64,000 bases of DNA from positions 9,481 through 73,480 of the forward strand of contig CALXUM010000003.1 in NCBI GenBank assembly GCA_944391685.1. Direction: 5' to 3'. The position numbers were made by a program, and so were the translations under genes. The stretch is from an uncultured Alphaproteobacteria bacterium (GTDB lineage: Bacteria > Pseudomonadota > Alphaproteobacteria > RF32 > CAG-239). A model generated the notes under the pieces. The model saw nothing but the letters and a program-made list of their open reading frames with translations. It was not told the origin of the DNA and did no database searches. Positions 43,785 through 48,301 of this stretch are shown here, one piece after another (the stretch's first letter is position 1; each line of letters starts with the position of its first letter).

Positions 43785-43824
43785 TTTTGTAACTTTTCCA
43801 CAGGTCTGAAACATTTTTACAACC
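43785..43824. repeat. cassette junction repeat, copy 1 (TTTTGTAACTTTTCCACAGGTC...TTTTTACAACC)
   Basis: Near-identical strings at 45434-45473 and 46969-47008. Confidence 0.85.
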
Positions 43825-43904
43825 GCTGCTTGCGTTTTATAAAACAATTTGTTATATTACGTGTTATGTATAACAATAATTGTTTATAAAGGAGAATAAA
43901 AACA

Positions 43905-44876
43905 ATGTTTACTGACTACAAATCACCGCTGGGCTATGTAGCCGATGGTAAAAAGATAGACACCTATGGCGTTGACCATAGCGGATTTTCAACAAAAGAC
44001 GAGATAGAATATCAAATGGCTCGGCAAAAAAGAGAAAACAGTTTGATAAAAGGTTATAATAACCAAGGAATAACTAAAGATTACCCGCAATATGGCACTA
44101 ACTTTTGGGGCAAAGCTGATAATAACTATGGTTTTGGCAACTCAAATATTGCCGATAATATCAAAAACAAACAAAACCAAGACATAAGTTCTGCATTATA
44201 CCCAAACCAAATAGGAAATGATGCCGCAAGTTATAAATTGGCTCAGAATAATCAAGCTAATACGGTGAGTGATGCAAATGGGCAAACGCTAACAAAATAT
44301 CAAAAATTAATAGATAAACATTATAATGATATCTATAAAAATGAAGGAAATCCTGATTATGTTTATCTTGATCCTAAATATATAAGAACAATCGGGCGAG
44401 GAACAAATATTAACAATCCTAATGCGTTTAATCAAGTTAACTATAAAATAAAAAATACAAATGATTTTGCAAGTGAAAAAGAAAAGCAAGATTGTTATGA
44501 TAAATTTGAAGACTGGATTAAAAATAATAAAAGACACTCCAAAGATAAACATAATTTTAAAGCGAATTATTTTGAGGATTTTTGTAATTTGTATATAGAT
44601 CCAAATGAAGCAAAACGATTACATAATGAACATGTTGTAAAAGATATTCCTGTCATAAAAAATATAATAAAAAATTATGATGAATTAAGTTATGAAAAAC
44701 AGTTGGCAATTTTAGATATGGTTTATAATCTTGGTGCTACAGAATTTAAAAACCAATTTACAAAATTTATTGAAGCTGCAAATGCTAATTCAGAAGAAGG
44801 AATGTTAAAAGAATATCATCGAAAGGGTATTTCTGAAGACAGAAATAAATGGACAGCAGATTTATTAAAAAAATAA
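43905..44876 (+). CDS. polymorphic-toxin-like protein: conserved N-terminal module + T4-lysozyme (GH24)-like C-terminal domain
   Basis: AAGGAG SD. The N-terminal roughly 115 aa are repeated in three downstream cassettes. C-terminus: NEGNPDYVYLDPKYIRTIGRG reproduces the T4 lysozyme E-x8-D-x5-T catalytic spacing and TIG(I/R)G, and ILDMVYNLGATEFKNQFTKFIEA resembles the T4L helix [22 protein letters not shown]. Confidence 0.75.
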   Translation: MFTDYKSPLGYVADGKKIDTYGVDHSGFSTKDEIEYQMARQKRENSLIKGYNNQGITKDYPQYGTNFWGKADNNYGFGNSNIADNIKNKQNQDISSALYPNQIGNDAASYKLAQNNQANTVSDANGQTLTKYQKLIDKHYNDIYKNEGNPDYVYLDPKYIRTIGRGTNINNPNAFNQVNYKIKNTNDFASEKEKQDCYDKFEDWIKNNKRHSKDKHNFKANYFEDFCNLYIDPNEAKRLHNEHVVKDIPVIKNIIKNYDELSYEKQLAILDMVYNLGATEFKNQFTKFIEAANANSEEGMLKEYHRKGISEDRNKWTADLLKK

Positions 44877-44880
44877 TTTA

Positions 44881-44920
44881 TATAGAATAGAATGTGTTTT
44901 AAAACACATTCTATTCTATA
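44881..44920. terminator. perfect 40-nt palindrome / bidirectional terminator
   Basis: TATAGAATAGAATGTGTTTT|AAAACACATTCTATTCTATA, 20-bp arms with no loop. The right arm encodes the last codons of the minus-strand gene. Confidence 0.6.
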
Positions 44921-45354
44921 CCATAAAATTCACCACTACGTCTAAAATTGTTTTTATCATATTCAATCAATTCTACTAACCAATGATAGCTAGTGCAATA
45001 TACACTATCCAAACATTCAGAAATTTTAAATTTATTGATATTTATTTGTGTCTTTTGGGTAACAGGATTATAAAAACTGCATTTCAAAATAATATATTCT
45101 TGTTTGTTTTCCAATAAAACACAAGACTGTGTTGTCCATCCTTCTTTATGATCATCATTTTTTTTATATGTGGATGAGTTTGAAAACTTTAAACTATGTG
45201 GAGTTAAATAAGATTCTCTAGCTATTGAAGAAATTGGAATTAACGGCTTATAAAATAGTGGGTTAACAAATTTTTCTTCTTTATTTTGCGTAAATAAGCT
45301 ACAAGCGGTTGTTATTAGTAAAACAGCCATACAAGCAAACAAGACTTTTTTCAT
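44911..45354 (-). CDS. small lipoprotein, candidate immunity protein for the GH24-like toxin
   Basis: GGAG SD, MKKVLFACMAVLLITTAC lipobox. Convergent with the toxin gene. Its 5' leader is a conserved repeat shared with 46398-46889. Confidence 0.6.
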   Translation of the reverse strand: MKKVLFACMAVLLITTACSLFTQNKEEKFVNPLFYKPLIPISSIARESYLTPHSLKFSNSSTYKKNDDHKEGWTTQSCVLLENKQEYIILKCSFYNPVTQKTQININKFKISECLDSVYCTSYHWLVELIEYDKNNFRRSGEFYGIE

Positions 45355-45473
45355 CACCAAACTCCGATAAAGTTATTTACCAAAAATCTTAAACTTAAAA
45401 GTTGAAGATATTGTTAAGTCTTAAAAGAGGGGTTTTTGTAACTTTTCCACAGGTCGGAAACATTTTTACAACC
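45355..45473. repeat. shared immunity-gene leader + cassette junction repeat, copy 2
   Basis: CACCAAACTCCGATAAAGTTATTT...AAACTTAAAAGTTGAAGATATTGTTAAG...TTTTGTAACTTTTCCACAGGTC... is repeated at 46890-47008. Confidence 0.85.
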
Positions 45474-45514
45474 ACCACTGGGCTATGTAGCAGATGGTAA
45501 AAAGATAGACACCT

Positions 45515-46360: not shown

Positions 46361-46397
46361 CAATGTATTTAAGGGGGAATTTATTTCTCCCTTTTCT

Positions 46398-46889
46398 TTA
46401 TTTATAATCTTTAATAAAACTAAATATGCTAATTTGCTTTTCAATTTGTGATAATAATATCTCAATGTATTGTTTTATAACTTTATTAACCTGAGTATTT
46501 TTTTCTTGTTCACAAATAGTACCTGACGGAATATTGTACTTATTTAAACAATAGGCAACACCATAAACAGCAAAAGTTGATTTAACATAATTTCGATAAC
46601 TGTTTATGTTGTTTTTATAATTATAGTTATAAAAATGTTGCAAGATATTTTGTGAGAGATTATCCATACAATTTAATTGATTTTCATTTTCAACACATTG
46701 ATTTAATTTTATTTTGTATTGAAGCAGCAAAGTATAATCATCAATAATATTTTTTATTTTATCTTTGCTACTCCAATCGCTTTGAGAATAAACTTTATCA
46801 ATATCAATTCCGTGATATGTTTCCGCATGAACATTTATGCTAACCAATAGGGTGAAAGCAAATATAAAAGCAAAATGAATTTTTTTCAT
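46398..46889 (-). CDS. small secreted protein, candidate immunity protein for the GH108-like toxin
   Basis: MKKIHFAFIFAFTLLVSINVHA signal peptide. Same conserved leader and SD as 44911-45354, but an unrelated mature sequence. Confidence 0.6.
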   Translation of the reverse strand: MKKIHFAFIFAFTLLVSINVHAETYHGIDIDKVYSQSDWSSKDKIKNIIDDYTLLLQYKIKLNQCVENENQLNCMDNLSQNILQHFYNYNYKNNINSYRNYVKSTFAVYGVAYCLNKYNIPSGTICEQEKNTQVNKVIKQYIEILLSQIEKQISIFSFIKDYK

Positions 46890-47008
46890 CACCAAACTCC
46901 GATAAAGTTATTTGCTTGAGATAGTAAACTTAAAAGTTGAAGATATTGTTAAGGATGAAAAGAGAGGCTTTTGTAACTTTTCCACAGGTCTATAAAAATT
47001 TCACAACC
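46890..47008. repeat. shared immunity-gene leader + cassette junction repeat, copy 3
   Basis: See 45355-45473. Confidence 0.85.
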
Positions 47009-47699
47009 AAAGACGAGATAGAATATCAAATGGCTCGGCAAAAAAGAGAAAACAGTTTGATAGAAGGTTATAATAACCAGGGAATAACTAAAGACTATCC
47101 TTTAATCAGGCACTAACTTCTGGGGAAATCCCGACAATAACTACGGTTTCGGCAGCTCAAACATTGCCGATAATGTTAAGAATAAACAAAGATTTAAATT
47201 ACAACAAGTAAATACTATTGATTCAAAAATAGAAAATTCACGACAGCAAATTAATAATTATTTGATCCCGCAGGAAGCGTATAAAAATGCAACTTGGGGA
47301 GATAAGACAGCTCAACAGCTTAATAATTATATGCAAGCTTATGATTCATATCCTGGAGTAACAAACACTGGGGTTTTAGCTCCTTTTAATGATTTTATAA
47401 GAAATTATGAAGATATGGAAAAAAATGCATTGATTGGTTCAGATAATTTCTTTCATTGTAAAGCAAATTATGAAGCGGCTAAAAGAGGTGCTTGGGGAGA
47501 ATTGGTAGGAAAAGGAATGAGTGCGGCAAGAGAATTGTACGGTTTGGCAAAGGGAGAGCCTTTTTCGGATGTAAGGAAAGATTGGCACGCCAATCAAAGG
47601 GGATGGAACGGAGCTAAACAAGGACTATCCTTGGAGCAAGCTTGTCCAACTGATCCTAAGGAATATGTTGAAATAAAAGATTATGAAGATGTTTTTTAA
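47009..47699 (+). pseudogene. orphan toxin cassette, frameshifted: conserved module fragment + serum-amyloid-A-like C-terminal domain
   Basis: KDEIEYQMARQKRENSLIEGYNNQGITKDYP runs into a stop at 47114-47116. A +1 shift near 47100-47111 continues as TNFWGNPDNNYGFGSSNIADNVKNKQ..., in frame with track ORF 47262-47699. C-terminus IGSDNFFHCKANYEAAKRGAWGE...SAARE...D..ANQRGWNGAK aligns by eye with vertebrate SAA ([22 protein letters not shown]...SDARE...D..ANEWGRSGK). Confidence 0.6.
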
Positions 47700-47752
47700 T
47701 CTGTATTGACTTTAACAATCTCTATGTTTAAATTTATGTAAGGGCAAAAAAT

Positions 47753-48124
47753 ATGAAAACGGTTTTTAAGCAATTTATAAGCTGGGGTTGGATTTGTGCA
47801 AAAAAAGGATTGGTGTTGTTAATTCCTATGCTCTTTGTTGCAATGTATTTATTTGATATAACAATAATGGCAAAATATCATTATCCTGAAAATACATCAG
47901 TATTATATTTGCAGATATTAGGTGTTGTTTTTTATGTTTGTTGTATATGGTGTATTTTATTTAAGTTAAATAAATGGAATAAGGCTTTGCTTTTACTTTC
48001 TTTGCTTTTAATTATAGGGATGTTTTATTTTAACTATGATATTAAAAGAATAAAACAACATTCTGAGTGTATTGAAAATTCAAATATATTGTGTCCTGAA
48101 GGAGTAGATCTTCAAGGAGGATAA
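47753..48124 (+). CDS. 3-TM membrane protein, candidate immunity protein for the SAA-like cassette
   Basis: Three hydrophobic helices (GLVLLIPMLFVAMYLF, LQILGVVFYVCCIWCILF, ALLLLSLLLIIGMFYF), directly downstream of the SAA-like cassette. Confidence 0.5.
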   Translation: MKTVFKQFISWGWICAKKGLVLLIPMLFVAMYLFDITIMAKYHYPENTSVLYLQILGVVFYVCCIWCILFKLNKWNKALLLLSLLLIIGMFYFNYDIKRIKQHSECIENSNILCPEGVDLQGG

Positions 48125-48148
48125 TTATAAAGAACCACCCTTTGAAGG

Positions 48149-48301
48149 ACAGTTTGATAGAAGGTTATAACAACCAAGGAATAACTAAAGACTACCCTTT
48201 AGTATGGAAATAACTTCTGGGGCAATTCCGATAACAACTACGGTTTCGGTAGCTCAAATATTGCCGATAATGTTAAGAATAAACAAAACCAAGATATAAA
48301 T
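48149..48301 (+). pseudogene. fourth copy of the conserved toxin module, stump only
   Basis: ...SLIEGYNNQGITKDYP, then the same type of +1 disruption as copy 3 and ...NNYGFGSSNIADNVKNKQNQDI. It ends 1 nt before the tadA stop codon. Confidence 0.6.

Follow-up and report, generated by a model that had tools for sequence, protein, structure and literature searches.

A putative polymorphic toxin-immunity island with a previously unannotated N-terminal module in uncultured gut and rumen Alphaproteobacteria

Rhs, CdiA-CT, Neisseria MafB and LXG toxins have a conserved N-terminal part carried by hypervariable toxins, with a cognate immunity gene adjoining each. A full gene is followed by 5′-truncated, promoterless cassettes that keep their immunity genes, and a block of homology is available for recombination. 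In bacteriocins of the colicin M type, exported immunity proteins are often encoded downstream on the opposite strand, and convergent, separately controlled immunity genes are typical (PMC5821083). Here we describe an island with likenesses to both, in a 64-kb stretch of DNA (the window) from an uncultured Alphaproteobacteria bacterium (contig CALXUM010000003.1). It lies between smpB (43243–43716) and tadA (48302–48766) and is very probably a polymorphic toxin-immunity island. The family to which it would belong had not been annotated before and comes from uncultured Alphaproteobacteria of gut and rumen. Judged by the criteria of Zhang, Aravind et al. (2012), it has variable tails on one N-terminal region, a neighbour that co-varies with the tail, orphan cassettes and recombination at the N-terminal module, as an earlier note on this DNA had proposed. 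What the module lacks is a recognised trafficking domain (Rhs, PAAR, LXG/WXG, TPS/FHA, MafB-N, MuF or a signal peptide).

The smpB–tadA block holds four copies of one 5′ coding module, all on a single strand. Repeat analysis and tblastn place them where the earlier note had seen them (tblastn extents: copy 1, 43905–44255; copy 2, 45469–45805; copy 3, 46976–47189; copy 4, 48145–48310), and tblastn found none beyond these four in the window. Only copy 1 keeps a leader, a ribosome-binding site and a start codon in this genome: the AGGAG and ATG that the note had singled out are at 43890–43894 and 43905. The features of the island are collected in Table 1.

Copy 1 encodes a T4-lysozyme-like toxin. 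On its own, the sequence scores below the Pfam threshold for Phage_lysozyme (E=5e-4, score 20.8 against 22.3). A profile of its tail class (A3, ten members) matches T4 lysozyme in the PDB at E=6e-6 and aligns the invariant E, D and T/G of the class with T4 lysozyme E11, D20 and T26. The E-x8-D-x5-T spacing first noticed in the single sequence therefore stands, with the catalytic residues in register. Toxin 1 has no hydrophobic segment. The small protein encoded beside it, immunity candidate 1, has a single N-terminal hydrophobic segment with a TTAC lipobox-like site. Toxin tail and immunity gene form a conserved block, since window positions 44232–45417 correspond to positions 10730–11911 of a related locus, L086, at 81% identity (related loci carry the prefix L throughout). 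The ratio of nonsynonymous to synonymous substitution rates (dN/dS) is 0.22 for the toxin 1 tail against L086 and 0.15 for immunity candidate 1. Within the leader, an 8-bp inverted repeat (TTGTTATA-N12-TATAACAA, 43849–43876), retained in this copy only, looks like an operator.

Copy 2 is an orphan cassette with an intact muramidase tail. Its DNA is 92% identical to that of copy 1 over 272–345 nucleotides (nt), and it has lost 96 nt of copy 1 between a common 42-nt element and 'CACCGCTGGGC': the leader, the AGGAG, the ATG and the first 5 codons (16 nt coding). A +1 frameshift follows at ∼45548, at KDEIEYQ. The earlier note had correctly placed the end and the tail of this copy; its start at ATG 45515, the choice of the open reading frame (ORF) finder, lies in the out-of-frame piece and falls away. 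The GH108 signature is borne out by PF05838, well above the gathering score (E=1e-15, 58.3 bits against 21.2), and residues 119–276 match the phage endolysin family phrog_315 at E=2e-30. A proposed peptidoglycan-binding-like segment has no Pfam match of its own and is covered only by phrog_315, although PG_binding_3 occurs in 6 of 80 relatives. Window positions 45470–46873 correspond to L085 10017–11421 at 78% DNA identity, and the GH108 gene is full-length and intact in L085. The dN/dS of the orphan tail against L085 is 0.13, not above that of the toxin 1 tail. Immunity candidate 2 has a hydrophobic N-terminus of one segment and a dN/dS of 0.18; the block of GH108 toxin and immunity 2 is kept in L085, L027 and L112.

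Copy 3 carries a bacterial serum-amyloid-A (SAA) tail. It lacks ∼30 codons at its 5′ end. As the earlier note had read it, the copy is frameshifted: three-frame translation reveals one frameshift, and a single +1 repair at ∼47100 (DYP/QYGTNFWG) joins the module to an ORF (47262–47699) that matches SAA PF00277 at E=1e-16 (61.2 bits against a threshold of 30.8). Bacterial SAA domains belong to the Lipocone superfamily and have been described as toxin tips predicted to cut head groups off lipid carriers, lipid II among them; an sNxxGR motif has been defined in helix 4 of the prokaryotic (prok-) SAA domains (PMC12419801). In cassette 3 this motif reads ANQRGW, with NxxG kept and R displaced; relatives have VNAIGR. 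The protein encoded 3′ of the cassette has three hydrophobic segments, so that the three small neighbours, with one, one and three segments and the TTAC site in the first, fit their earlier description as a lipoprotein, a signal-peptide protein and a protein with three transmembrane segments (3-TM). The sole homologue of the 3-TM protein (L162 11484–11855) is not beside an SAA toxin; in L028, L051 and L060 it is a cysteine-rich exported protein that comes after the SAA toxin. Copy 4 is a stump, as had been described, holding only part of the module and cut off at the tadA stop codon. It has a +1 frameshift identical to that of copy 3 and is 90% identical to 47052–47190, and we therefore regard it as the relic of a copy-3-like cassette.

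The module is a widespread protein domain of ∼95 residues, found at the N-terminus of proteins from uncultured Alphaproteobacteria of gut and rumen. When 1.84 billion cluster representatives were searched exhaustively with a profile, 284 proteins (clusters at 50% identity) were returned; a word-indexed search returned 101. In the best 150 of the 284 clusters the match starts within the first 52 residues and mostly at residue 1, the exceptions being representatives whose called start lies mid-module, truncated copies like those of the window. A profile scan of genomes gave 237 matches, of which 80 were fetched, almost entirely in metagenome-assembled genomes of uncultured gut and rumen Alphaproteobacteria and with several separate loci per genome. 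A genome scan with a single sequence gave no match. Metagenome matches come from human gut and apparently also from rumen samples. The family proteins are 200–460 residues (aa) long and consist of the module, an N/Q/S-rich linker and an interchangeable C-terminal toxin.

The module resembles nothing in the catalogues that we searched. It has no match in Pfam, NCBIfam or PHROGs, its profile gives only noise against PDB sequences, and Foldseek returns zero matches for its model in both PDB and BFVD; the earlier remark that it bears no known trafficking signature has held in every one of these searches. An AlphaFold model built from 72 sequences describes, with fair confidence (pLDDT 81, pTM 0.66), a small compact domain in which extended segments surround one long central helix (residues 30–53); a disordered linker comes after the domain. 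Many residues of the module are invariant; the conserved NNYGFG motif and the following linker had low confidence in a longer first model. We found no account in the literature of the module or of secretion systems in these bacteria.

Several variants of the N-terminal region were seen in related loci. In L023, L033, L035, L036 and L037 (for example L036 9983–10255) an in-frame stop follows ∼42 codons inside the module, and the tblastn match runs on beyond it; this allele, widely sampled in human gut, reflects either recoding or a pseudogene that is common. Some toxins within arrays of the family have another N-terminus, MKNQSEYVWSYAAYGGEPQYIQTPYG..., joined to VgrG3-like_C (L036 11270–12256 and relatives), and L085 7278–7949 contains yet another, MEINRVRKDIEDVFYGKK..., which suggests at least one further uncatalogued leader type. 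In L084 (6757–7837), from the closest other species, the module gene has only 115 aa; out of frame, it passes into a GH108/PG-binding-type tail of which the last ∼90 residues are left, with the immunity gene after it. This is a toxin with an internal deletion whose immunity gene is retained.

The same module is joined to many unrelated tails. We called and clustered ORFs in 163 loci and the window and classed toxins by their last 130 residues, obtaining at least 16 tail classes on the module. The idea of one module with many ends, drawn from three ends in the window, thus extends to at least a dozen unrelated tails across the family. A Pfam census of 80 cluster representatives identified GH108 in 11 members, PG_binding_3 in 6, SAA in 4, T6SS_VgrG3-like_C and Tlde1 in 3 each, YkuD and SLT in 2 each, and Pesticin, GH46, Phage_lysozyme and PG_binding_1 in 1 each. 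Every identifiable tail is predicted to aim at peptidoglycan or its lipid-linked precursor (lipid II). The GH108, T4-lysozyme-like and SAA identities mean that all three tails of the window likewise point at the cell wall or its precursor. Pfam searches of the unknown tails and the longest members found no domain, including any PT-TG-type pre-toxin domain. Several of the unknown classes share a glycine-rich segment after the linker, such as GFGQGFVSGLESLANGVTLGGYDWL (L119 8309–9529, L162 9983–11017, L074, L108), which may be a pre-toxin or membrane-active domain.

What lies next to a toxin depends on its tail. T4-lysozyme-like tails are immediately followed by a convergent gene of one lipoprotein family ('cluster 5', including 44911–45360 of the window) in 11 of 16 cases. 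GH108 tails are accompanied by a convergent family of signal-peptide proteins, 'cluster 7' (including window 46398–46895), in 10 of 23 and by same-strand 'cluster 10' in 7 of 23; Tlde1 tails have clusters 8, 39 or 259 (11/12). Three further classes are each paired with a single membrane-protein family: T4 with cluster 12 (7/7), T5 with cluster 19 (6/6) and T7 with cluster 11 (4/4). A hydrophobic segment is present in 102 of the 128 distinct downstream proteins. Class T8 has a convergent 190–215-aa neighbour without one, hinting at a cytoplasmic target. We read the small neighbouring proteins as putative immunity proteins. The toxin/immunity logic that the earlier note had claimed for all three pairs is backed by this co-variation and, for pairs 1 and 2, by block conservation in L086 and L085; the third pair, SAA with the 3-TM protein, is weak. 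We had also suspected divergent pairing, that is, each minus-strand gene with the toxin downstream of it, because the 155-nt repeat spans the 5′ ends of both. We rejected it because L085 and L086 conserve the convergent toxin–small protein blocks and the cross-tabulation agrees.

Could the island instead be a remnant of prophage lysis genes? Its toxins would then be endolysins, and the small membrane proteins would resemble holins or spanins. GH108 and T4-lysozyme folds are indeed classic for endolysins, and copy 2 matches a phage endolysin family (phrog_315) and, weakly, the NCBIfam model 'holin-associated muramidase'. However, 2.9 million viral contigs contain no relative of the module, which also lacks a PHROGs match and a BFVD fold match, and phage structural and integrase genes are absent from the island. 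Moreover, the tails of the family include the non-lytic Tlde1, YkuD and SAA, and the neighbours co-vary with the tail as immunity proteins do. We consider a prophage origin highly improbable.

Orphan cassettes are a general feature of the family. More than one module copy is present in 42 of 167 loci, on the same strand throughout except for one minus-strand fragment in L084. Across the 167 loci there are 27 internal 5′-truncated copies, in which the break recurs near residue 45; outside the window such orphans are found at 25 places in 20 other loci. In L086 a full gene and its immunity gene are followed by a module copy that begins at residue 45, again with an immunity gene, and further on by tail fragments without a module, each accompanied by an immunity gene. 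In L085, on the other hand, three full-length genes stand in tandem, so both states exist. The description of copies 2–4 as silent orphan cassettes agrees with their 5′ truncations and frameshifts and with the full gene plus truncated copies of other genomes; in copies 2 and 3 the toxin domains and immunity genes are intact.

The module is homogenised within genomes. Module DNA identity within a locus is 90–100% (window 91%, L086 90%, L066 100%, L076 99%, L056 97%), whereas modules on orthologous toxins of different genomes are ∼73% identical and the tails and immunity genes of the same toxins 78–81%. This difference is the mark of concerted evolution, that is, of recombination at the module. 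Cassettes also change position. L169, from another sample, contains a 580-nt piece that is 95.5% identical to cassette 1 of the window, as a 5′-truncated copy: a piece of its tail, placed behind a Tlde1 tail and that tail's immunity gene. In L170, a further variant, the copy-3 frameshift is combined with a tail of a fourth kind. The earlier note had called the module recombination-competent, and both concerted evolution and the orphan position of the cassette-1 tail in L169 speak for this.

These data also bear on a simpler explanation, in which copies 2–4 are tandem paralogues in decay, dying pseudogenes without a reserve function whose modules are alike through recent duplication. Copies 2–4 are indeed frameshifted and 5′-deleted, decayed fragments are common in the family, and the tandem full-length copies of L085 look independently expressed. 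In addition, the array is the same in two other samples (99.98% identity over 6 kb in L165, and 99.8% as far as the contig end in L164), with no switching seen. Nevertheless, in a sequence with ∼30% G+C, tails 2 and 3 retain open frames of 180 and 145 codons, the orphan GH108 tail has the low dN/dS given above, and all three immunity genes are intact. Recent duplication cannot account for modules that are 91% alike on tails without mutual similarity, tails whose orthologues elsewhere are 78–81% alike and yet carry modules only ∼73% alike. Decay without function is, in our view, improbable.

We propose the following working model for the polymorphic toxin-immunity island. Toxin 1 would be made without a Sec signal, reach the periplasm of competitors and cut glycan strands there, while the producer and its kin would be shielded by a periplasmic lipoprotein, immunity candidate 1. 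The immunity genes of the silent cassettes would be driven by their own promoters in the repeated intergenic unit and would always be on, guarding against relatives in which those toxins are expressed. Through homologous recombination in the ∼270-nt module (92% between copies 1 and 2), the live 5′ end could become joined to one of the stored tails, and the weapon would be switched. Tail-plus-immunity blocks are common to different genomes, while modules are homogenised within each genome.

Some observations weigh against parts of this reading. That copy 1 is the expressed copy and copies 2 and 3 are silent is inferred, with sequence as its only basis, and an N-truncated copy 2 protein could be made from ATG 45515. 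No recombinant junction was found in this strain, and the two other samples (L164 and L165) have the same array. Several tail classes have no recognisable function, and the T8 neighbour without a hydrophobic segment means that the targets need not all be periplasmic. Finally, only adjacency links the SAA toxin to the 3-TM protein.

How might toxins without a Sec signal reach another cell's periplasm? We searched for a type VI secretion system (T6SS) with ten core proteins of an alphaproteobacterial plasmid (L168: TssB, TssC, TssE, TssF, TssG, Hcp, VgrG, PAAR, TssA and ClpV). Neither phmmer nor tblastn found a homologue in the 1.82 Mb flanking ∼165 loci or in the 64-kb window, and a search of the loci with Hcp1 also gave no match. 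PAAR, Rhs, LXG, MIX or other marker domains are absent from the window proteins, the 80 representatives and the longest members. Fusion or linkage to VgrG, Hcp, PAAR, an adaptor or a T6SS cluster, by which T6SS cargo is recognised, was not found, and no large neighbour gene of any kind recurs near the loci. We also considered a flagellar export route and rejected it: flagellar genes are not enriched near the loci.

One non-immunity neighbour does recur. Directly upstream and on the same strand, 36 loci (L011–L017, L028, L093–L106 and others, but not the window) have a gene of one family, represented by 35 distinct sequences of 150–260 aa. The longer forms have an XRE-type helix-turn-helix, and all share a basic C-terminal domain (...LAQANNREFKK) without a Pfam match. 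The family may be a dedicated regulator.

We tentatively favour, short of calling it probable, a released modular bacteriocin in the style of colicin M and pesticin, with the N module as its uptake part. The proteins are small, with an N-terminal delivery part and a low-complexity linker; some immunity genes converge on the toxin gene and have terminators and promoters of their own; there are no linked T6SS genes; and a dedicated regulator may be present. However, no lysis or release gene was found, and a strongly conserved module present in many copies per genome fits the usual pattern of an export tag better than that of a receptor-binding domain.

An export tag is a possibility that we take seriously but lean away from. 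On this account the module would be read in the producer by a Sec-independent, probably contact-dependent apparatus encoded elsewhere, which would inject the toxins into the neighbour's periplasm; the apparatus could be undescribed, or of a known type such as T6SS or the type IV secretion system (T4SS). A small, folded domain placed at the very start of the protein, with its many invariant residues conserved over all 284 clusters, would suit such a tag, as would the clustering of modules by genome, which also fits co-adaptation to a resident apparatus. LXG, MafB, Rhs and MIX-type effectors are characterised by the same two features, several paralogous loci in each genome and orphan arrays, and Tlde1 and VgrG3-like_C tails are best known from T6SS effectors. 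The searches described above nevertheless found no T6SS core homologue, recurrent large neighbour, flagellar enrichment or marker domain, and convergent immunity genes with dedicated upstream regulators are unusual for secretion-system effectors. It is somewhat doubtful, though conceivable, that the module serves a delivery route unlike any described, either a new export pathway in gut Alphaproteobacteria or a new outer-membrane import route used by a large family of bacteriocins aimed at peptidoglycan and lipid II. As a separate observation, type-IV-pilin-like genes of two families (GRSMIEMLGVLAIVGVLS... N-termini) recur within 10 kb of toxin loci (L048, with three copies, L024, L032, L072, L013, L151, L157 and L162), which is either true linkage or merely another variable gene family.

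Table 1. Features of the smpB–tadA island in window coordinates.
Feature	Position	Strand	Basis
Hairpin terminator 3′ of smpB; left boundary of the island	43737–43767		Terminator scan
42-nt repeated element, copy A (GTTTTTGTAACTTTTCCACAGGTC...ACAACC)	43783–43824	+	Repeat family D4
Leader unique to copy 1	43825–43904	+	Read from sequence; promoter function inferred
Intact toxin gene 1, 323 aa: N module (∼43905–44190), N/Q-rich linker, T4-lysozyme-like (GH24-type) muramidase domain	43905–44876	+	ORF
Bidirectional terminator, a perfect 20+20 nt palindrome, where the genes of toxin 1 and immunity 1 converge	44881–44920		Inverted repeat I2, terminator scan
Immunity candidate 1, lipoprotein or exported protein, probably starting at ATG 45354	44911–45360	-	Family 'cluster 5'
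First 155-nt repeat unit, with the immunity gene 1 5′ end, its upstream region and 42-nt element copy B (45432–45473)	45320–45474		Families D3, D4
Orphan cassette 2: 5′-deleted, frameshifted module, then intact GH108 muramidase tail	45470–46360	+	Sequence, tblastn, translation
Hairpin terminator between cassette 2 and convergent immunity gene 2	46371–46393	+	Terminator scan
Immunity candidate 2, signal-peptide protein (VHA/ET)	46398–46895	-	Family 'cluster 7'
155-nt repeat unit, second copy, with 42-nt element copy C (46967–47008)	46855–47009		Families D3, D4
Orphan cassette 3: module from ∼residue 31 (KDEIEYQ), frameshift, then open frame through prok-SAA (Lipocone) domain	47009–47699	+	Three-frame translation
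Immunity candidate 3, membrane protein with three hydrophobic segments, 3′ of SAA cassette	47753–48124	+	Pairing weakly supported
Stump 4: module residues ∼44–98, ends at tadA stop	48145–48301	+	tblastn, translation

The island is AT-rich and contains a second kind of repeat. The G+C content of the island block is 23–37%, and that of the flanks ∼42%; smpB was assigned as PF01668 via an identical protein, and tadA by its deaminase domains. The 42-nt element, possibly part of a promoter region, is confined to this genome among 1.8 Mb of related loci, with up to 4 mismatches allowed, and the leader region aligns weakly with L084. An Rfam scan gave nothing near threshold, and the element is therefore not a known RNA. 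The two 155-nt units are 82% identical, take in the 5′ ends of the two minus-strand genes and reach upstream of the module. A scan for promoter consensus found fewer sites than in shuffled sequence and is uninformative in this AT-rich DNA.

Other genes of the window also drew notice. Directly upstream of smpB (40725–43241) are genes for a Pal-like OmpA lipoprotein, a tetratricopeptide-repeat (CpoB/YbgF-like) protein and TilS; the position of the toxin island beside a tol-pal neighbourhood is probably coincidental housekeeping synteny. Gene sizes had led us to suspect a T6SS operon at 13835–21042 (minus strand), but Pfam identified UvrB and flagellar proteins. This operon-like group comprises UvrB (13835–15814), an 849-aa protein, an MgtE_N-domain protein, DUF6468, FliM and FliL, and the presence of FliM, FliL and related genes indicates that the organism is flagellated. 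The 849-aa protein and two nearby proteins of 1054 aa (21982–25146) and 688 aa (33590–35656) have no Pfam match.

If the reading of the island is right, abundant uncultured Alphaproteobacteria of the human gut and rumen would gain an arsenal of hundreds of toxin variants in at least a dozen classes, with matching new immunity families; the activity of several of these classes is not recognisable from sequence. The module, absent from the catalogues, would have to hold the delivery information for enzymes bound for another cell's periplasm. Should the delivery route prove new, the module could be put to use as a portable 'address label' on cell-wall enzymes. The island would also be a natural setting for a bacterial SAA domain, which is predicted to cleave lipid-II-type carriers.

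The closest parallels differ from the island in instructive ways. Against Rhs, CdiA-CT, MafB and LXG toxins, with which it shares the architecture set out at the beginning, the N module falls outside the known trafficking domains, the proteins are only 200–460 aa long, and there are no repeats, PAAR/VENN/HINT processing motifs or signal peptide. Two of the three immunity genes in the window are convergent rather than co-transcribed, and no secretion genes are linked.

Colicin M and pesticin offer a different set of likenesses. They too are small soluble proteins without a signal peptide. Their delivery part is N-terminal, and the enzyme at the C-terminus acts on peptidoglycan in the case of pesticin, a T4-lysozyme-like muramidase, and on lipid II in the case of colicin M. 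In our family the C-terminal enzyme is likewise predicted to act in the periplasm, and the immunity protein is exported and often convergent. Bacteriocins of the colicin M/pesticin type are not known to have a lysis gene, a further likeness to our family. By contrast, the N module has no sequence or fold likeness to any colicin or pesticin domain, and there are many paralogues per genome and tandem orphan arrays. The motifs IDTYGV and DHSGF only resemble DTMVV and DGSGW and amount to no demonstrable TonB or Tol box.

T6SS effectors such as the Tge muramidases, Tlde1 and the VgrG3 C-terminal domain have the same toxin folds as our family, and Tgi-type immunity lipoproteins correspond to its periplasmic or lipoprotein immunity partners. 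The difference is again one of context, as ∼165 loci are without a linked T6SS gene and the toxins without MIX, FIX, PAAR, VgrG or Hcp fusions. The prok-SAA toxin tips described by Burroughs, Nicastro and Aravind (eLife 2025, PMC12419801) include the fold of the cassette 3 tail, and the cysteine-rich immunity family of that study appears to be the protein beside the SAA toxins of L028, L051 and L060. Whereas the carriers in that study are T4SS, T6SS, T7SS, T9SS (type IV, VI, VII and IX secretion systems), MuF and cystatin-like, SAA is borne here by the new N module, and the SAA cassette of the window is predicted to be silent and adjoins a 3-TM protein. Polymorphic toxins with orphan cassettes are a well-known architecture, and the advance would therefore be a new family rather than a new principle: a toxin family with a new N-terminal trafficking domain.

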